Position numbers and translations under genes: made by a program. The notes beneath the pieces are model-generated. The model was not told where the DNA came from. It did no database searches and saw only the letters and a program-made list of their open reading frames with translations. Positions 620 to 40,972 of a stretch of DNA of 46,145 bases are shown here, piece after piece (the stretch's first letter is position 1; each line of letters opens with the position of its first letter). The DNA comes from a virus, in the UHGV virus genome UHGV-0144499; one strand, 5' to 3'.

Positions 620-2020
620 ATGATTGTCAAAATTGGCGACAAGTGGGTCGTTAAATCTAAGGATGGCTCGCACCAGTTTGGCGAGTACAACACCGAAGAG
701 GTGGCGAAAAAGCGCCTTGCTGAGGTGGAGGCATTCAAGCACATGAATAATAAATTACAGGTTAACATCCTGTACACAATCAACTCAGCCAGCAACATCA
801 GTGAAAAAATCATTGATGGCGACCCGCATTATGTCATCAAGAATGTTGTGCCGGTGGTGGATGACATCGTCATGAATGGCGGTCTGTACCCTGGCGATGA
901 GATTAAAAAGTCATTCCATGGTCTTGACGGGAAACCGGCGCCATATGACCACCCGAAGATTGATGGCAAATATGTGTCAGCCAACATGACGCGAGCCGCC
1001 AATCAGTTCAGCGTTGGTGCATGGATTGAGAACTCATCTCATGACGGCAGCAAAGCACTGGTAGACCTTTATATTAACAAGGTGGTGGCTGAGCGCTCTG
1101 ATAAAGGCAGGGAATTGCTGTCGCGCATTGACGGACTCAAAGTTAACAGCGCCGATGCTGAACCTGTTCAGGTGTCCACCGGTCTGTTACTCGACCGCGA
1201 GCAGGCATCAGGAACTTCTAAGGGCAAAAAATATTCCTGGATTGCCCGGAATATGGAGTGGGATCACCTCGCCATTCTTCCACCTGGCATTCCAGGTGCT
1301 GGCGGCCCTGCTGATGGTGTCGGTATCTTTGCTGCTAACGGCGAAGACATTGAGCGCGTTGTAGTTAACCTTGAGGAATCAGCAATGACCGACGAAAGTG
1401 CAAACAAAATCAAATGGTGGCAGCGCGCCATCAATCGACTGACTGGGAATCAGCTGTCATTCACTGATATTACTGAGCAACTCCGCAATATCATCAAGGC
1501 AGAGACTCAGTCTGATGTATGGCCCTATATCGTCGCCGTTTATGATAATTACTTCGGCGTTGAGATTGACGGCACCATTTATATGCAGTCCTACATCGTC
1601 CGCGAGGATATGGTAGAATTAGTCGGTGAACGGGTTAAGGCTGTTTATAAGACAGAGCTTGAACCGGTAAAAACAACTCAAGGGGAAATCTCAATGACTA
1701 ACGAGGAATTACAGGCTGCATTAGCCGACGCCCTCAAACCGGTTCAGGAATCGTTGACCGCAGTCAACCAGAAACTGGCCGATGTGGAGGCGCAAAACAA
1801 AACCCTGCGCGACCAGCTTCAAGCCAATGCCGCACAGGAAGAAACCGCAATGCGCGCCGCCATTATGGCTGAGCTGAAGTTGCCGGAATCTGCTGTTAAT
1901 GCGCTGACTGGCGAAGCACTGCGTGAAACCTATGCGCTCACCAGTAAAGCGGCTCCGATTTCCGGCGGGTTCCAGCCGAACCGTGCCGAAGAAGATTTTG
2001 ATATGGAGGCACCTGAATAA
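620..2020 (+). CDS. putative head scaffolding / prohead maturation protein (466 aa)
   Basis: First large gene of the head operon, immediately upstream of the decoration-like and major capsid genes; C-terminal ~120 aa are coiled-coil, Ala/Glu/Gln-rich, scaffold-like; TAATG coupling to next gene. Confidence 0.45.
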
Positions 2021-2484
2021 TGGCTACTATCCGTTATGGCACCATCATCGGCGGCCCGGCCCGCAAAAACGACCCGCAGTTGCGCGAAGGGCTGATGAAC
2101 GTCGCTCTGCAACCTGGCGCACTGGTCGACTTCAACTCCTCTGACAAAATCATCGCGCATGCGACTGCTGGCGGTCATGGTTTCCCTTACGTTCTGCAAC
2201 ACAACTATGTTGGCGGCGGTGACGTGAGCGAGGCTGTACCGGCAAATGCTACCGGCATGGCAGTACAGTGCGAATTTGGCGTAACGTATCACGCTCTGGT
2301 TGCGGCATCCTCCGAGCTGGTAAAAGGTACTCCGCTGGCAAGCGATGGCTCCGGCGCGTTAAAGGTTGCAGAAGCAGGAGAAAATATCCTGTTTTATGCG
2401 TATGAAGCCTACACCGTAGCATCTGATGGCGCTGAACTCGTTGCAGTTCGTCGTGCTGGCAATGCTGCAATGCCTGCGGCGTAA
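2020..2484 (+). CDS. putative head decoration / capsid accessory protein (154 aa)
   Basis: Small Gly/Ala-rich protein between scaffold-like gene and MCP, the usual decoration-protein position; translationally coupled (TAATG). Confidence 0.35.
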
Positions 2485-2495
2485 GGAGCCGAACA

Positions 2496-3584
2496 ATGGA
2501 AAAGATTATCTTTACGAAAGGCTTAATCACCAATTCGCAGGTGGTTAAAGAGCAATGGCGTCACCTGACTGTTGACCGCAAGGTTTTCATCAATGGTGAA
2601 AACGCTCTGGCGAAAGAATACGGCGTGAACGCCACCGCGCTGGTAACGAAAGACTACTGGCGCGAAGTGGACGATGTGACCACCCGCGTGTTCCGCAACG
2701 AGTCCGGCATGGACATGATGGCCGACCTGATGACGCTGGCGACCAACATCAACATCGGTAAGACCGTGGCAATTAGCCGCATGGCCTCCGATGCTGGCAA
2801 GGTTGTGCGCACCATCTCCGGGCAGGAGCCTGAAGACCTGGATAAAACCCGCTATTCCTACAGCGGAGATGTAATCCCGATCTTCAAAACCGGTTATGGC
2901 CGCGAGTGGCGCGAGCTGATGGGTATGCAGTCTGAAGGTTTCGACCCGCTGATTGATGACCAGGAAAGCACCACCTTTAACCTGCGCGCAGACATGGCGG
3001 ATTATCTGCTGGTCGGCGATGCAAGCCTGAACGTGAACGGCGTTTATACTGCTTACGGCATCACCAACCACCCGAACACCGTGCAGCTCAACCTGGGTGC
3101 CTCCGGTACTGGCGCGCTGAACATCGACCTGCAAACTGCAACCCCTGATGAAATCGTTGAGTTCTTCAACCAGGGTTTCCAGGCGGTTCTGGACGCGCAG
3201 AACGTGTTCGAGCCGGTTACTCTGTGGGTTTCTCCGTCTGTGCGCCGCTCCTTCAGCCGCCCGTACTCCAACGCGGCAGGCTTCAAAGGCGGCACCATTG
3301 AGGATTATATCCTAGCATTCGGCAAAACCGGCAACGTTGGCCGCATCGCGTCTATCGGCACCAACTTCAAGCTGACCGGGAACCATTTCGTCGGCTACGT
3401 GAAGAATGCTCTGTATATCCGCCCTCGCGTCGCTCAGCCGGTATCCACCTATGCAGAGCCGCGTACCACGCCGCACGCTAACTTTAACTTCCTGACCTGG
3501 GCTGCTATGGGCCTGCAAATCCGTAAGGATTTCAATGGTCGAAGCAAAGTTTTCAACGGCTACGGCACGCAAACCGCGCTGTAA
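2496..3584 (+). CDS. major capsid protein (362 aa)
   Basis: Strong RBS AAGGAG 6 nt upstream; size, position after scaffold/decoration genes and strong terminator immediately downstream typical of MCP. Confidence 0.65.
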   Translation: MEKIIFTKGLITNSQVVKEQWRHLTVDRKVFINGENALAKEYGVNATALVTKDYWREVDDVTTRVFRNESGMDMMADLMTLATNINIGKTVAISRMASDAGKVVRTISGQEPEDLDKTRYSYSGDVIPIFKTGYGREWRELMGMQSEGFDPLIDDQESTTFNLRADMADYLLVGDASLNVNGVYTAYGITNHPNTVQLNLGASGTGALNIDLQTATPDEIVEFFNQGFQAVLDAQNVFEPVTLWVSPSVRRSFSRPYSNAAGFKGGTIEDYILAFGKTGNVGRIASIGTNFKLTGNHFVGYVKNALYIRPRVAQPVSTYAEPRTTPHANFNFLTWAAMGLQIRKDFNGRSKVFNGYGTQTAL

Positions 3585-9798: not shown

Positions 9799-10554
9799 AT
9801 GGCTATTTGTGCAAATGATAACGGCATCATCACAGGTCGCCAGTCTCTCATTGAGCTGGCTGATGGCTGCTGGGATGCTGTGCCAGCAGAGGAAGACTGG
9901 AAGTTTTTTGCTCCCATGACCTCAAAAGGCGTCGACTTCAGTCCAAGCACCACCACTTCAGAGGCTGATGATGGCGATGGCTTTGTCGCCACGCTGGTCA
10001 CTACGGCAGACCTCACCATTTCCGGTGATTTTGAAGTTCGCAAGGCTGACAAGGCTGATGAGTATGGCGTGCACAACCTCATCAAATACTTTGTCACCGA
10101 AGTAAAAGCGCGTCGCCAGCCGTCGCTGTGGGTTCGCCAGACCACCGGTAATACTGTTGTCGTGGCTTACTGCAACATTACCGCTCTGAGCTACGATGGC
10201 GGCACCAACGACATCATCACCGGCTCTGTTGAATTCAAGCCGTATGATGGCTCTACCGTTGACGTGTCCAGCATCGAAGACCTGACGCTGACTACTGATA
10301 TCAGCAAAACAAAAAGCGTTGCCACTGGCGCCACTCTGACGCTCGGTCCGGTGGTTGCGGCTGGCGGTGTAGAGCCTTATACCTACCAATGGTATAAAGG
10401 CGCCACGCCGATCAGCGATGCTAATACCAGCACGTTCACCAAGGCCACTGCTGCCGCAGGTGATGCTGGTACGTACTTCTGCCGCGTGATGGACTCGGCA
10501 ACCAGTCCTGATTACGTTGACTCTACTAAGTGTGTCGTCACCGTGACCGGATAA
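9799..10554 (+). CDS. major tail (tube) protein with C-terminal Ig-like (Big_2-type) domain (251 aa)
   Basis: Preceded by extended -10 TGATATAAT and RBS AGAGGA; C-terminal ~85 aa (TTDISKT...PYTYQWYKGATPISDANTSTFTKATAAAGDAGTYFCRVMD) is a typical bacterial Ig-like fold decoration; strong terminator follows. Confidence 0.7.
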   Translation: MAICANDNGIITGRQSLIELADGCWDAVPAEEDWKFFAPMTSKGVDFSPSTTTSEADDGDGFVATLVTTADLTISGDFEVRKADKADEYGVHNLIKYFVTEVKARRQPSLWVRQTTGNTVVVAYCNITALSYDGGTNDIITGSVEFKPYDGSTVDVSSIEDLTLTTDISKTKSVATGATLTLGPVVAAGGVEPYTYQWYKGATPISDANTSTFTKATAAAGDAGTYFCRVMDSATSPDYVDSTKCVVTVTG

Positions 10555-34944: not shown

Positions 34945-35043
34945 CTGATTTATAATAATTAATGCGGCTAGGGGGCACCCGAAAAGCGACTCATCACCGC
35001 CTGCTGCATTCACTTCAATGATGCCCTGATGAGGAATCTATAT

Positions 35044-37563
35044 ATGGCACGCAAAAGACTGTCAGCACCAGCAATTGAAAAACTTGAAGAGATTATTGGC
35101 GATGGCGTGATTGATGCGCCTGAATCTGCGGTGTTCGGTGTTGTTAATACAGATAAGCAGATTGTTCGCAAACTCAAAATGACGCAAAGCGGAGTTGATG
35201 ACGTTAGCGACTCTGATATTGGCGTTGATCACCTGATACCAGAAAAGCTGGAAAAGCTACTTTACCCCAAGAGAAATAAGATTGTGTTTGGCGGGCGCGG
35301 ATGCTTAGCCATCGGCACGATGGTGAGGATGTTTGATGGTGGCCTAAAACGCGTAGAGGATATCGTTGTTGGCGATAAGGTTATGGGTCCAGACAGTAAG
35401 TCACGAAATGTTTTAAGCATCTGTCGTGGGTTTGATGACATGTACACGGTTCATCAAAAATATGCCGATAACTACACCGTCAACTCAAGTCACATACTGT
35501 CATTACGAAAGATTCCATCTGCTATCAGTGACGAGACAAAAACACCGGATGGTAAAAGAATTTATCGTTATTACCCAAATGAACCTGAAGTACTGAACAT
35601 CGGTGTTTCAGAATATTTATCGCGCGCAACTTCTAAAAAGTTCCGCCATGTCTTTAAAGGGTGGCGAACAGGGTGGGATTTTAATGAGCAGAGCGTTCCA
35701 GTTGACCCGTACTTCCTTGGTTTATGGTTAGGTGATGGCTCATCTCGTAGTGTTGAAGTATGCACGCCTGATCAAGAGATAGTTGACTACCTTCACAGCA
35801 TAGCAAACCAATACGGGATGCAATTAAAGGCTCGGGATAAAGACAGATGTCCTGTCTATGCGATAACTAATGGCCGAACTGCTGGCATGGGGGAAAACAC
35901 CAACCCGTTACTAACTAAAATGCAGCAGCTTGGGGTGATTAATAATAAACACATACCTGACTGCTATATCAAAAACAGCAGAGAGGTAAGACTTCAGATT
36001 CTGGCTGGGCTATTGGATACTGATTCGCATTACCACAAAGAAAAGAAAAGCTATTGTTTTACATCAATAAATAAAGATATAGCCTTCTCTTTGATGGATG
36101 TAGCAAGATCGCTTGGTTTCAAGTCAAGCATAATCAAAAAGACTGATGTCACCTTTGAGTATAAAGGCGAGAAAAGAATATACGAAAAGGATGTGTGGGA
36201 GGTGTTCGTTAGTGGTGACCTTCATACAATCCCATGCCGAGTAAAAAGGAAGATAGCAGAGAGAACCAAGTCAACTCGCGGGATGATGACTGAGGTGTCA
36301 TTGTCTTATGCCGGGCATGGTGAATACGCTGGGTTCACTCTTGATGGCGATCATCTTTTCTTGCTTGCTGACGGCACAGTTACACACAACAGCGGAAAAA
36401 CAAGAACAGTAACTACAATACTTACGGAGCGTGCACGTTTCAAACCTGACAGGATGGCTTGTTTTCGTGAGATTCAGCAGTCTATTGAGGATAGTTCATA
36501 TCAGGAACTGAAAGACGAGATTGACAGGAAGGGCGAGACAAAAGAGTTCCGCGTCATCAACAACGAAATAACGCACAAGGTAACGAAAGCAAAGTTCCGC
36601 TTTAAAGGGCTGTATCGCAACCAGACGACCGTAAAAGGCTTCGCTGGCATTACAGTAGCTTGGGTCGAGGAGGCGGAAAACGTCAGCCAGACAAGCTGGG
36701 AAATCCTCACCCCAACAGTCCGCGCTGAAGGGTCAGAGATATGGGTGACTTTCAACCCAAATAAAGAGCATGACCCGACGTGGAAAATATGGGTTGAGCC
36801 TTTTTATAATAAATTGCGCGAAAATGGCGGCATCTATGAGGATGATGAAAACCTGATTATCGAGTGTAATTACTCAGACAATCCGTGGTTCTGGGATACT
36901 CCGCTCCCAAGCCAAATGCAGCGCATGAAAGAAACCGACTTCGACCGCTATCAATGGGTGTGGGGTGGGCGCTTTAATAAGCGTAATGATGAGCAGGTAT
37001 TTGGCGGTAAGTGGCGCGTTGCTGATTTCGAGGTTAAGCCGGAATGGCATGGGCCTTACTTTGGCATCGACTTTGGATTCTCGCAGGACGCAACGGCGAT
37101 GGTTGAGGTTTACATTGAGAAACTTCCTGATGACCGCCGCAACCTTTACGTCGCGCGCGAATACGGCCGTGTAGGCCTTGAGATTACCGACACACCTACA
37201 GCGATGGAGCAATCATTCCCACTCTCCAGGAAGGCAAGATGGTATGGGGACTGCTCTCGGCCAGAAACAATCAGTCACATCAAACGCGCAGGATTTGATA
37301 TCCATCCATGCAATAAGTGGCCCGGGAGCGTGGAGGAGGGTGTAACCTGGCTCAGGGGTTGCGACAGCATCATCATTCATGACCGCTGCACACAGACTCA
37401 GGAAGAGTTCACTATGTACAGTTACAAGGTGGACAAGCTGACGGGTAACGTGCTCACAAATATTGTGGATGCGTGGAACCACTTCATTGACGCAATCAGA
37501 TATGCATGCAACGATCACATCGTACAGCGTGGCTCTGGATGGATTAGAAGGGGCAGGAGATGA
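35044..37563 (+). CDS. terminase large subunit, interrupted in-frame by an intein (extein about 476 aa)
   Basis: Walker A split as VFGGRG | intein | SGKTRTVT; Walker B ITVAWVEEAEN; C-terminal nuclease-type region; start at ATG with GAGGA RBS (MARKRLS). Confidence 0.85.
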   Translation: MARKRLSAPAIEKLEEIIGDGVIDAPESAVFGVVNTDKQIVRKLKMTQSGVDDVSDSDIGVDHLIPEKLEKLLYPKRNKIVFGGRGCLAIGTMVRMFDGGLKRVEDIVVGDKVMGPDSKSRNVLSICRGFDDMYTVHQKYADNYTVNSSHILSLRKIPSAISDETKTPDGKRIYRYYPNEPEVLNIGVSEYLSRATSKKFRHVFKGWRTGWDFNEQSVPVDPYFLGLWLGDGSSRSVEVCTPDQEIVDYLHSIANQYGMQLKARDKDRCPVYAITNGRTAGMGENTNPLLTKMQQLGVINNKHIPDCYIKNSREVRLQILAGLLDTDSHYHKEKKSYCFTSINKDIAFSLMDVARSLGFKSSIIKKTDVTFEYKGEKRIYEKDVWEVFVSGDLHTIPCRVKRKIAERTKSTRGMMTEVSLSYAGHGEYAGFTLDGDHLFLLADGTVTHNSGKTRTVTTILTERARFKPDRMACFREIQQSIEDSSYQELKDEIDRKGETKEFRVINNEITHKVTKAKFRFKGLYRNQTTVKGFAGITVAWVEEAENVSQTSWEILTPTVRAEGSEIWVTFNPNKEHDPTWKIWVEPFYNKLRENGGIYEDDENLIIECNYSDNPWFWDTPLPSQMQRMKETDFDRYQWVWGGRFNKRNDEQVFGGKWRVADFEVKPEWHGPYFGIDFGFSQDATAMVEVYIEKLPDDRRNLYVAREYGRVGLEITDTPTAMEQSFPLSRKARWYGDCSRPETISHIKRAGFDIHPCNKWPGSVEEGVTWLRGCDSIIIHDRCTQTQEEFTMYSYKVDKLTGNVLTNIVDAWNHFIDAIRYACNDHIVQRGSGWIRRGRR
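35302..36390 (+). mobile_element. intein with LAGLIDADG homing-endonuclease domain (363 aa) in the terminase P-loop
   Basis: Begins CLAIGT (block A), TVNSSH (block B), LGLWLGDGS and LAGLLDTDSHY (LAGLIDADG blocks), ends ...VTHN followed by extein Ser (block G); insertion precisely between GRG and SGKT of Walker A. Confidence 0.8.
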
Positions 37564-37583: not shown

Positions 37584-37873
37584 CTATTTATAAAGCCAGC
37601 AATGAATCCCCGCATTGCGCATGGCCGCGTAAATAACATCATCAGAAACGACCGCCATTGCCACCCTGTCAGCGTCAACCTGCTGGTGCGAAGCCATGAT
37701 GTCATCATAGAAAACATCGTTAGCATGCAGCCACTCATACGCATGCTTTGCCCTCATGATAAGCACATCATGCCCGGCAGAGTAGAGCGACTTAGCCAGC
37801 GCAATGTTGCCAGCAATAGCATTCCTTCAGCATCGCGCAGCACGCCATCAAGCTCGAAAATGACACATTTCAT
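37584..37873 (-). pseudogene. remnant of a HAD-superfamily phosphatase gene (frameshifted/truncated)
   Basis: Frame a (37754-37873): MKCVIFELDGVLRDAEG, a HAD motif-I-like start with the first Asp replaced by Glu; frame b (track ORF 37584..37766): ...AVVSDDVIYAAMRNAGIHCW, a HAD motif-IV-like C-terminus; total far too short for an intact HAD fold. Confidence 0.35.
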
Positions 37874-37899
37874 AAGATTTCTCCGAGAGGTTTCATTTT

Positions 37900-37941
37900 A
37901 ATCTACGCCATGCTAGAATCTACGTCAAGGCGCATTGACAT
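37900..37941. promoter_or_regulatory. promoter/operator: AATCTACGCCA + GAATCTACGTCAAG tandem motif; minus-direction TTGACG-17-TAGATT
   Basis: Copies at 37900-37910 and 37916-37929; plus strand TTGACA at 37936-37941. Confidence 0.4.
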
Positions 37942-37961
37942 AACTACATCACCGGGGCATC

Positions 37962-38201
37962 ATGAAGGCATACTCATCTTTTTCGTGGGAGCAGAAGGAA
38001 AAAATATACTCACTCGCAAGAGCTGGCGTATCGGATGAGGCGTTGTGCGAAAGGTACGATGTGGATGAGGCCATCCTGCTGCGCATGTATGATGAAGTGC
38101 TGTGTGAGTTGCAGCGACGCCGTGGTTATAGTGGTCTGAAGACGATTAATGGTTTCTTTCGTAATGTTGAGTTAAATAACGATGAGGGTGGTGATTTATG
38201 A
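37962..38201 (+). CDS. hypothetical protein (79 aa)
   Basis: ORF. Confidence 0.45.
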   Translation: MKAYSSFSWEQKEKIYSLARAGVSDEALCERYDVDEAILLRMYDEVLCELQRRRGYSGLKTINGFFRNVELNNDEGGDL

Positions 38202-38232
38202 AGGGTATCGTATTTATGATTGAGGTGATGAA

Positions 38233-38721
38233 ATGACAACAATTGCATGGGATGGGGTTACGATTGCGCACGATAGTCAGTCCACTGCCGGAAGCCTGAT
38301 TATGGCTAACCAGCAGAAGTCTTTTGTACTTGATGAAAATGATAAGTTTTTTATTTGCGGTGAGCTGGCTGTATTGATTGTTGGTAGTGGTGCTGCTGGC
38401 GATGAACGATATGCGAAGCAGTTCATGCGTCGGGCCGTTGATGACATTATGGAGATGCCAGAAGAGCTGGACTTTACTCAGTGGGTATTCACAGATAAAG
38501 GGAACTGTTTTGCCATCCAGAAGATTCCTGACAATAAATATCCAGCTGTTTACGCAGTCATTCCTCCGCTTGCTGCTGGCTGTGGGCGCGACTTTGCTAT
38601 GACCGCGATGTATCTTGGGCAGACGGCTGAACAGGCGGTAATTACTGCGTCAGTTCTCGATGCTTTCACTGACTCGAATGTTAAAACATATAAATTTAAA
38701 CACGGTGAGGGGATGAAATGA
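38233..38721 (+). CDS. HslV/proteasome-beta-like Ntn-hydrolase (threonine peptidase T1-like), 162 aa
   Basis: MTTIAWDGVTIAHDSQSTAGSLIMANQQKSFVLDENDKFFICGELAVLIVGSGAAGD aligns motif-for-motif with HslV N-terminus (TTIV...V.IA.D.Q.T.G...M.K......NDK.I.G.AG...D): catalytic Thr directly after Met, conserved Asp, Lys and NDK block; RBS GAGGTGA. Confidence 0.6.
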   Translation: MTTIAWDGVTIAHDSQSTAGSLIMANQQKSFVLDENDKFFICGELAVLIVGSGAAGDERYAKQFMRRAVDDIMEMPEELDFTQWVFTDKGNCFAIQKIPDNKYPAVYAVIPPLAAGCGRDFAMTAMYLGQTAEQAVITASVLDAFTDSNVKTYKFKHGEGMK

Positions 38722-38882
38722 TTATTGAAGGTGAAATTTTTGAGGATATATCAACTACAGAGATTAATCCGCAGTCGATGAACATCAATCAAGATGGCGA
38801 CGCAATCGTCATCGACAGACACCAGGCCGCGCAGCTCATCGAGGTCCTGCAACGCTGGGTTGATGGCGAGGAGGTTGAGTGA
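38718..38882 (+). CDS. small acidic ORF (54 aa)
   Basis: ATGA-coupled; hand-translated. Confidence 0.3.
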   Translation: MIIEGEIFEDISTTEINPQSMNINQDGDAIVIDRHQAAQLIEVLQRWVDGEEVE

Positions 38883-39067
38883 TGAGTATTTACTTTATTC
38901 ATGCGGAAGTTCTGAGTGAAGGAAAGGTGGTGGCGAAGGCTTGCGCCATTGCGTACTCCGACTCTGCCGATGATGCTTTTGATTGGTTTATGGGCAGCGA
39001 AGAGGTAGCAAGATATAAGAATGGCGGGAGAGATGTAGTAATTGATAAACTAGAAAAGGTGGAATGA
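38879..39067 (+). CDS. hypothetical protein (62 aa)
   Basis: ORF, GTGATGA coupling. Confidence 0.4.
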   Translation: MMSIYFIHAEVLSEGKVVAKACAIAYSDSADDAFDWFMGSEEVARYKNGGRDVVIDKLEKVE

Positions 39068-39267
39068 TGAAGAGATTCCTTTTGGCGTGGTTATATCTCT
39101 TTGCAGTGTACGTGATATGCCTTGCTCTGGCCTTCCCGGTCTGCTGGTTCATCAAGTGGCAGCCACCGATGCTAAGCGATATCATGAATATCGGTGTACT
39201 GCGTATCGCGGTGTTTATGCTGATAACTTCTATGGTTGGCGCGTTGTTTCTTAGTAGAATTGATTGA
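39064..39267 (+). CDS. small membrane protein (67 aa, 2 TM)
   Basis: Two hydrophobic helices. Confidence 0.45.
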   Translation: MMKRFLLAWLYLFAVYVICLALAFPVCWFIKWQPPMLSDIMNIGVLRIAVFMLITSMVGALFLSRID

Positions 39268-39276
39268 GGTGGGGTA

Positions 39277-39474
39277 ATGACAAGAAAAGAGATTCATGAT
39301 GTGGCGGTTGGATGCAGGAAATGGATTGAGGAGATATGGTTTAAGCCTGGATTCAGTGGGAAGCGCTATAAATTGTACGCCAAGTGTTGCGGTTTGGTTC
39401 TTGGGGATAGAATAGAGCTTGCTATATTCCACCACAATGATAAAGCTCTCCATGATAGAGCCTTTGGTGACTGA
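39277..39474 (+). CDS. hypothetical protein (65 aa)
   Basis: ORF. Confidence 0.4.
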   Translation: MTRKEIHDVAVGCRKWIEEIWFKPGFSGKRYKLYAKCCGLVLGDRIELAIFHHNDKALHDRAFGD

Positions 39475-39482
39475 TACCATGC

Positions 39483-39514
39483 TATAATCCCATCTATGCG
39501 ATGGGATTTTTTAT
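39483..39514 (+). promoter_or_regulatory. extended -10 (TGCTATAAT) fused to hairpin atcccatc-tatgc-gatgggat + T6 directly upstream of portal gene
   Basis: Perfect 8-bp stem and TTTTTTAT tract 10 nt before portal ATG; TATAAT at 39483-39488 overlaps the stem. Confidence 0.4.
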
Positions 39515-39523
39515 GGTGACGAA

Positions 39524-40972
39524 ATGTCAAAGTTAGAGGCGGTAAACGCCTATATTCAACAGAGAGTGGCGAACAATAACAGGCTCATCGAGCGGCAGCG
39601 CCGGGAGTTTGGCGGTGTAAACATAGACCAAAAGCACACCAGACTGTATGTCGAATGTGGCTACCCTGAAGAAATCACCGCCGAGATGTTCCGCTATGCC
39701 TATGAGCGCTATGCACCGGCAACTGCTGGCGTCAATCGCGTGCTCGATAAGTGCTGGCAGACTCCGCCGCAAATTCTCGAAGAAGGCGCCGATGATAAAG
39801 CAAGCACTCCGTGGGAGAAGGCCACCAACAAGCTGTTTAAGCGTGCTGCGCCATTCATCAAGGATGCAGACCGCCGCAACCTCATCAATCGCTACTCCGG
39901 CCTCATCCTGCAAATCCGTGATGGAAAGCAATGGAATGAGCCGGTAGACACCACGAAAACAAAACGCATAAAGGATGCTGCCATTGTCCGTTACATTCCG
40001 GTGTGGGAAGAACAGCTTCGCGTTAGTGAGTGGGAAAATGATGAAGCCAGCGAGGACTATGGTCAACCGAAGATGTACGAATATCAGGAGTCGGTAGTCG
40101 GCGCCTGCAACAGCGACGGCAAACCAACGCGCTCCCTGAGCATTCATCCCGATCGCATTATCGTATTTGCCGAGGGTGCGATGGATGGCTCCATTTACTC
40201 TGGCGTTCCGCTTCTGCGTGCCGGGTACAACCACCTCATCGACATGGCGAAAGTCACTGGCTCAAGTGCAGAGGGATTCCTGAAGAATGCCAGTCGCCAG
40301 CTAAATGTTAATTACAACAAAGAGTCAGTTTCCGCTCAGTCTCTGGCGCAGCAAATGGGCGTGCCGCTGGAAGAGCTGGCAGATGTGCTCAATGAGGATG
40401 TGGTGCGCCTGAACGAGGCAATAGACGCCGCTATGTTTAGCATTGGAGCCGATGTCAAAGTGCTCTCAGTGACGCCAGCAGACCCAAGCCCAACGTGGAC
40501 TATTGCAGCCAACCAGTTTGCAGCATCCATCAAGAAGCCATTCACCATCCTGTTTGGTCAGCAGACTGGCCGCCTTGCGTCCGATGAGGACAAAACCGAT
40601 GACGCCATGAGCGCCAAGCAGCGCCGTGAGGACTGGCTGGACTACATCATCTCGGTATTCATTGACCGGATGATTTCCTTTGGCATTCTGGATAAAGCGC
40701 CAGAGAGCGGTTATTACTGCAAATGGGATGACCTGCTTGCGCCTTCCGAGCTGAACAAGGCCGACTTGCTGGTTAAACTCGCCACTGCAAACAAAGCTGT
40801 ATTCGACGCAGGGCAGATGGCTCTGATGACCGCAGATGAGATGCGCGGCATTGTTGGCATGGAGCCTCTGGAAGAGCAGCTTCCTGAAGGATTGCAGGAA
40901 GGTCAGCAGCAGGACCAGCAATCGCAGCAGGACCAACAGCAGGGCCAAACCGATGCGCCTCCTCAAAATTAA
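39524..40972 (+). CDS. portal protein (482 aa)
   Basis: Size and position between terminase and Mu-F-like head gene; acidic Gln-rich C-terminal tail. Confidence 0.65.

Follow-up and report, generated by a model that had tools for sequence, protein, structure and literature searches.

A PPH-family N-terminal threonine peptidase on an accessory cassette of a Klebsiella siphophage

The PPH family was named by Fuchs, Alva and Lupas (2021; PMC8665760) and was presented in that year as the first proteasome-family representative that is truly viral. PPH proteins are found in tailed phages or prophage-derived regions, comprise ~140–165 amino acids (aa), possess the Thr1/Asp17/Lys33 triad without a propeptide and adopt a compact fold from which helix H2 and the C-terminal elements S12 and H5 are missing. 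In the published cluster analysis, they were grouped with HslV and with BPH, the beta-proteobacteria proteasome homologue (group I), and not with connectase (PMC8665760). A search of the literature on phage HslV-like proteins, N-terminal nucleophile (Ntn) hydrolases and PPH, BPH and Anbu retrieved no functional study of any PPH from the library searched. Here, a PPH gene of the virus genome UHGV-0144499 is described; the whole stretch of 46,145 nucleotides that was analysed is referred to as the window. The phage is a Klebsiella siphophage of the KpV2811/Roufvirus type, with an identity in the region from the large terminase gene (terL) to the portal gene of 95.8% to Klebsiella virus KpV2811 and 94% to Roufvirus pIS4-A. 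The open reading frame (ORF) in question was confirmed to be intact at exactly 38233–38721 on the plus strand and to encode the 162-aa product initially assigned to it.

The initial annotation, made from the sequence alone, had proposed an N-terminal threonine peptidase resembling HslV and proteasome beta subunits. Profile searches and structure prediction bore this out, returning the proteasome/HslV fold and not an unrelated one. The profile phrog_1040 of PHROGs ('peptidase HslV family') matched the window protein over residues 1–159 (E 2.7e-27). When a family profile of 64 relatives was compared with the PDB, catalytic proteasome beta5/beta8, BPH and HslV chains were found at E 1e-10 to 1e-8, with the alignment running from Thr1 to the Asp166/Ser169 motif. 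The AlphaFold (AF2) monomer model of the window protein (pLDDT 91.1, pTM 0.86) had HslV as its nearest solved fold. According to DSSP, the model contains one short helix (residues 58–67) between strands 44–53 and 81–87, where HslV has H1 and H2, and this agrees with the lack of H2 published as a PPH trait (PMC8665760). The curated sequence models for HslV and the proteasome are not passed by the window protein: Pfam PF00227 alone remained below threshold (14 bits versus a cut-off of 22.4), and the NCBIfam scan yielded no match. A search of the PDB with the single sequence was likewise without a match. From the phrog_1040 match and the comparison of traits with the published description, we conclude that the window gene is a member of the already described PPH family and does not define a new one. 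The novelty implied at first is therefore not upheld, the family being published as PPH (PMC8665760), collected as PHROG 1040 and annotated in RefSeq relatives; gp67 of KpV2811, which is 96.9% identical to the window PPH, carries the label 'peptidase HslV family'.

Conservation was counted after 257 relatives had been aligned with E. coli HslV. As judged from this alignment, the T1-peptidase active site is complete in the window PPH, with equivalents of Thr1, Asp17, Lys33, Ser129 (replaced by Cys), Asp166 and Ser169 (replaced by Thr); the codons and counts are listed in Table 1. The constellation of Thr2, Asp14 and Lys29 was thus found in place, as initially predicted. At position 117, the Ser129 equivalent, Ser is present in 229, Thr in 13 and Cys in 11 of the 257 sequences (253 taken together), and the window PPH sits in a small subclade with Cys117 in place of the usual Ser. 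The glycine of the oxyanion hole is G53 in the window PPH and is near-invariant. The conservation of the catalytic residues persists across the 257 sequences down to ~25% identity, which indicates that the enzyme has been selected for catalysis and not as a decoy. Outside the active site, the H3–H4 segment is the best conserved part of PPH.

Concerning the N-terminus, an MTT start was found in 239 of 261 retrieved PPH sequences (median length 150 aa), and E. coli HslV also begins with MTT. In the window, an in-frame stop lies four codons 5' of the ATG with no start codon between them, so that the M-T-T start is fixed and a propeptide is impossible. Among the HslV-like N-terminal motifs of the initial annotation, Thr2, the D-x-Q-x-T-x-G block and Lys29 stood, whereas the 'NDK' match proved to be coincidental and not positional; in the alignment, it falls into residues 33–43, an inserted hairpin that varies within the family. 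The counterpart of HslV 'VIAGFAGG' in the window PPH is 'VLIVGSG'.

Compared with the PPH proteins described in 2021, the window subclade is slightly longer (162 aa, with the hairpin 33–43 inserted) and has Cys for Ser at the Ser129 position; otherwise, no substantial difference was found. The distance to the other members of the fold is larger. To HslV (ClpQ, HslUV, MEROPS T1B), which assembles as a double hexamer (dodecamer), PPH has an identity of only ~15–25%; H2 and the docking positions K28/L88 are absent, no hslU is found beside the window gene or anywhere in the phage, and the gene is a phage accessory gene and not a member of a heat-shock operon. BPH (PDB 5ovs/5ovt/5ovu) is longer (~185–200 aa), retains both H1 and H2 and is encoded on the bacterial chromosome; the double-heptamer architecture is a feature described for BPH. 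In comparison with the catalytic 20S proteasome subunits beta5/beta8, PPH is ~40 residues shorter, has neither a propeptide nor an alpha-ring partner and originates from a bacterial virus.

PPH homologues were present in 353 phage records, mainly of Jerseyviruses, SPN3US-like and Erwinia jumbo phages and Xp10/OP1, with some from Microbacterium phages. A HMMER scan of all 1.8 billion cluster representatives revealed 436 representatives (50% identity) at E ≤ 1e-10, nearly all of them aligned from residue 1. Searching BFVD with the model, 38 viral predicted structures were found to share the fold at E ≤ 1e-3. Many of these came from jumbo phages (Noxifer, Special G, Moabite, RP12, CcrBL9, CcrColossus). 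As the matches include phages without a PPH detectable by sequence search, the spread of proteasome-fold proteins among phages is underestimated by sequence searches.

In agreement with the initial annotation, the gene lies between terL and the portal gene among small ORFs. Homology to pIS4-A, KP591P1 and MK54 ends at 38195–38201, where the upstream small ORF terminates, and restarts at ~38809, and in these three phages the gap is filled by differing short sequences. No PPH was found in the complete pIS4-A genome. The PPH cassette is thus a dispensable, exchangeable accessory function in a variable small-ORF slot. In two IMG/VR relatives, the PPH gene is split by frameshifts (L038:3359-3848; L039:10001-10494; L numbers denote the individual loci), as would fit a dispensable gene or errors in the assembly.

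Table 1. Features of the PPH gene, its active-site codons and its surroundings (positions in the window unless a locus is named; counts refer to the alignment of 257 relatives).
Feature	Position	Strand	Basis or remark
PPH-family (HslV/proteasome-beta fold) N-terminal threonine peptidase coding sequence, 162 aa	38233..38721	+	ORF list, profile and structure evidence
Shine-Dalgarno sequence GAGGTG	38222..38227	+	5 nt before ATG of PPH gene
Thr2 codon	38236..38238	+	Thr1 nucleophile after Met removal; T in 254/257
Asp14 codon	38272..38274	+	Asp17 equivalent; 257/257
Lys29 codon	38317..38319	+	Lys33 equivalent; 236/257
Gly116-Cys117-Gly118	38578..38586	+	proteasome Gly128-Ser129-Gly130; G116 257/257, G118 256/257
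Asp143...Thr146	38659..38670	+	proteasome Asp166 and Ser169; D 238/257, T 198 or S 49 (T/S 247/257)
Accessory cassette, ~0.6 kb	38202..38808	+	stretch absent from pIS4-A, KP591P1, MK54
Co-directional run of six small, mostly 4-nt-overlapping ORFs including PPH	37962..39474	+	variable slot between terL and portal
ORFs of the small-ORF run	37962-38201, 38233-38721, 38718-38882, 38879-39067, 39064-39267, 39277-39474	+	
Sigma70-like promoter match TTGACA-17-CATCAT, before the small-ORF run	37935..37963	+	consensus match only
Intrinsic-terminator-like hairpin and T-run, end of the small-ORF run before portal	39486..39508	+	consensus match only
Large terminase (terL), flanking, intein-containing	35029..37563	+	
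Portal protein, flanking	39524..40972	+	
Tandem-paralogue loci L041, L075, L079/L080, L088, L091/L092	~position 10000 of each locus		

Two further observations concern the terL side of the slot. The terL gene harbours a 363-aa intein (window 35302–36390, residues 92–454, C...HN|S) with Hint and LAGLIDADG homing-endonuclease domains; it is inserted in the Walker-A loop, splicing would restore GGRG-SGKT, and several close relatives have an intein-less TerL of 473–497 aa. Just 3' of terL, a divergent small ORF (37584–37874, minus strand) is frameshifted relative to the intact 96-aa KpV2811 gp69 and pIS4-A gp15, reflecting either a pseudogene or a sequencing error; some records label its orthologues 'polynucleotide kinase'.

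No gene for a ClpX/HslU-type ATPase was found among the window ORFs even at E ≤ 1, so that the initial statement that the window lacks an HslU-like gene stands. The AAA-type matches in the window were an AAA_24 protein and helicases, and the annotations of KpV2811 and pIS4-A contain no hslU. A jumbo phage with HslV-like genes and no recognised HslU was already remarked upon by Kwon et al. (PMC7823757). In a set of 97 PPH loci (37 clusters at 50% identity), each inspected over ±10 kb, a ClpX/HslU-type ATPase was found within 10 kb in one lineage only.

The fold, the complete active site, the lack of a propeptide, the dispensable cassette and the lack of a phage-encoded unfoldase are established by this analysis. 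Regarding the role of the protein, we favour, as fairly probable, the reading that PPH is an active, probably ring-forming Thr1 peptidase carried on an accessory cassette, which acts in the infected cell and not on the capsid. Met1 would be removed by the host methionine aminopeptidase, as in the case of E. coli HslV, exposing Thr1, whose hydroxyl would attack peptide bonds while its own free amino group would act through Lys33 and Asp17. The subunits would assemble into a ring-shaped, self-compartmentalising particle, and this may be an accessory protease of the fitness type that cleaves polypeptides of the host or the phage within the infected cell, in host takeover or counter-defence; the capsid would not be processed by it. 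Operating without a phage-encoded unfoldase, the particle might act alone on peptides and unfolded chains, as in a BPH-like mode, or with the help of a host factor that attaches at a non-canonical surface.

Assembly is suggested by jumbo-size contigs carrying two to three tandem PPH paralogues (178–244 aa, almost all starting with MTT, else MS[VT]), an arrangement expected of co-assembling subunits, that is, of hetero-oligomeric phage 'proteasomes'. In another locus (L024), two PPH copies lie 4.7 kb apart. As for counter-defence, the genes immediately before PPH on a lambdoid-type contig (L017:4947-6426) are NinB, a Tad3-family (anti-defence) gene and YbcO, and a Gad2 (anti-Gabija) gene (L015:225-845) is located ~5 kb from PPH in another phage contig.

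Several points speak against this reading. The activity, oligomeric state, timing and substrate of PPH are all inferred. Without H2 and with a shorter H1, ring assembly could be altered or lost altogether; connectase, which is devoid of H1 and H2, is a monomer. The exchange of Ser129 for Cys in the window subclade is a further point, which is probably tolerated. The link to anti-defence is anecdotal, resting on two of ~8 inspected neighbourhoods, and PADLOC returned no match for PPH or its five neighbouring small ORFs. The promoter and terminator matches around the small-ORF run did not exceed the shuffled expectation. Finally, in some PPH-bearing jumbo phages a true HslU homologue shares its gene run with a divergent PPH paralogue, and an unfoldase-dependent mode of PPH is therefore conceivable.

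The last point leads to the alternative that PPH rings dock the Klebsiella HslU (or ClpX), forming a hybrid ATP-dependent protease by which host unfolding is redirected to substrates useful to the phage; we regard this as possible, though unlikely. HslV is the nearest solved fold, HslV is almost inactive without HslU, and a stand-alone HslV-like chamber without a propeptide would plausibly need an activator. In the Huxley-type jumbo phages, gp125, a divergent PPH paralogue, and the HslU homologue gp130 belong to one co-directional gene run, and at least 19 jumbo genomes possess both the main PPH copy and a gp130-type HslU homologue. In one T7-like lineage, the gene of a ClpX-type mini-ATPase overlaps the PPH gene by 4 nt. 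The docking surface, however, argues in the opposite direction. The alignment columns of HslV K28 and L88, residues which we take to line the HslU-docking site, are gaps in most PPH sequences (MAFFT, not structure-based), and helix H2 is absent from the model. HslU docks via a C-terminal motif into grooves between HslV subunits (PMC7468587), and the phage HslU homologues have polar C-terminal tails. With the docking positions and H2 missing and the HslU tails polar, canonical HslU docking is unlikely. The hijack of host HslU considered in the initial annotation is therefore disfavoured in its canonical form, and what is left of it is a possible non-canonical partnership.

Neither do the gene neighbourhoods favour an unfoldase partner, as 96 of the 97 PPH loci are without such an ATPase within 10 kb. 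In the jumbo phages, the co-occurrence is limited to one related clade, the main copy is ~105 kb away, and the association breaks in both directions. Huxley gp125 (L011:37-561) is a divergent second PPH-like gene (phrog_1040, E 2.7e-10), and gp130 (L011:3001-4746) is a genuine HslU homologue (E 7.5e-49) with an enlarged I-domain (insertion of ~290 aa). A gene 97% identical to gp130 is annotated as 'putative DnaA protein' in pSal-SNUABM-04, so that the published statement that HslU is lacking from this phage (PMC7823757) appears to be wrong. Two genes 3' of gp130, Huxley gp132 (157 aa; L011:4942-5415) was matched in part by Peptidase_S80, the family of phiKZ-type prohead proteases (E 2.9e-7). 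RAY gp116, which had been considered as a PPH with experimental nuclear localisation, was rejected because it is an HslU-type ATPase, and the downstream gp117 and gp118 are not PPH-like.

In the T7-like lineage (L019/L020; region L019:5066-6471), the overlapping gene encodes a ClpX-like ATPase of 312 aa. It belongs to a mini-ClpX family of more than 200 phage proteins of ~310–340 aa that have no N-domain, possess a near-invariant [I/L]GF ClpP-docking loop and carry a G-A-S-G-G pore loop in place of GYVG. The docking loop is kept in 118 of 119 members, and in four sister loci the mini-ATPase is found beside ClpP, M48 or unknown genes without any PPH. By lineage, the neighbours are PPH in one, ClpP and M48 in another, M48 alone in a third and unknown ORFs in two (L019, L105–L108). 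A scan of viral contigs with the L019-type ATPase revealed no relatives. With the IGF loop kept, the four sister loci lacking PPH, no other of the 97 PPH loci showing the arrangement and no relatives in the viral-contig scan, the lead of an AAA+ operon was downgraded, and the adjacency in L019/L020 is weak evidence for a partnership.

A broader form of this idea, which we consider doubtful, would make PPH the core of a 'borrowed-unfoldase' protease that destroys specific host proteins such as immune effectors, jumbo phages supplying their own motor (gp125 with gp130) and small phages using a host AAA+ unfoldase through a non-canonical surface. If this were true, PPH would be a mobile counter-defence module hopping between hypervariable phage slots.

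Improbable as well is a monomeric, sequence-specific protease or transpeptidase that cuts or ligates one host or phage protein in the manner of connectase, the archaeal proteasome-fold protein ligase (PDB 6zw0, 8jtu). PPH shares with connectase the trimmed proteasome fold, the lack of a propeptide and the reduced H1/H2 layer (PMC8665760), and a narrowly specific enzyme needs no compartmentalisation. The tandem jumbo paralogues and the strongly conserved H3–H4 layer, however, fit an oligomer better, and the clustering of Fuchs et al. with HslV and BPH, and not with connectase, also argues against it. We would give very little credit to an Ntn amidohydrolase acting on a non-protein substrate, be it a small signalling molecule or a cell-wall peptide: the shell of Thr1/Asp17/Lys33 with Ser129/Asp166/Ser169 is specific to the proteasome (T1) family, the characterised T1 members all act on peptide bonds of polypeptides, and other Ntn families match far more weakly than T1.

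An unconventional prohead or capsid maturation protease, for which the position between terL and portal could speak, is scarcely credible. It is true that none of the canonical prohead proteases was recognised in the window, where the head module consists of portal, a Mu-F-like protein, a 466-aa putative scaffold, a decoration protein and capsid. The 466-aa head protein was considered as a protease itself; it gave only weak sub-threshold matches and is best read as a Pa193 gp24-like scaffold. Against a role of PPH in the head, pIS4-A is without PPH, yet its scaffold-like, decoration, major capsid, portal, Mu-F and TerL proteins are 95–98% identical to those of the window; conversely, KpV2811 retains PPH (96.9%), but its major capsid protein is only 23% identical. 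By this double dissociation, a required head-maturation role is ruled out. Moreover, a Microbacterium phage has PPH alongside its own annotated capsid maturation protease, so that the proposal is refuted both by the pattern of presence and absence and by a further lineage in which PPH and a canonical capsid protease occur together. PPH is also carried by SPN3US-type jumbo phages, which use a separate prohead protease, gp245. Regarding family, PPH has a proteasome-type fold and no Pfam or PHROG match to head maturation proteases; it shares neither fold nor family with HK97 gp4 (S78), T4 gp21 (S77), the ClpP-type (S14) or the phiKZ (S80) proteases and is not conserved together with the head module.

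TerL was found within 10 kb in 10 of the 37 PPH clusters, which is no more than chance for 20-kb windows in genomes of 40–50 kb, and the linkage of PPH to terminase and portal was accordingly rejected. In other lineages, PPH genes are embedded in runs of small accessory ORFs or in early clusters. Those of Jerseyviruses and Xp10/OP1 lie outside the structural module: in Jerseyvirus Ent1, PPH is the last gene of a small-ORF run before the lysis cassette, and in OP1 it is upstream of the regulator p7, an early product (PMC4513864), primase and helicase. In SPN3US, PPH is gp1 and adjoins tRNA genes. Within the head module itself (window 620–3584), the scaffold-like protein is 96% identical to that of KpV2811, the major capsid protein only 23%, and the decoration protein is without a match; apparently, the capsid and decoration genes were exchanged and the scaffold-like gene stayed, although proteins that interact would not be expected to part in this way.

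A catalytically irrelevant decoy or inhibitor titrating host HslU or another host factor, to which the HslV-like shape and the lack of an encoded partner in the window could have pointed, deserves hardly any weight, because a catalytic apparatus superfluous for a decoy is strongly conserved across the 257 sequences and the missing parts are precisely the HslU-docking features.

The near-identical phages with and without PPH represent a natural experiment, by which capsid maturation is ruled out and the gene is marked as an exchangeable accessory. Once the substrate of PPH is found, it should become clear how a minimal proteasome benefits a virus and whether a foreign peptidase can co-opt bacterial unfoldases.
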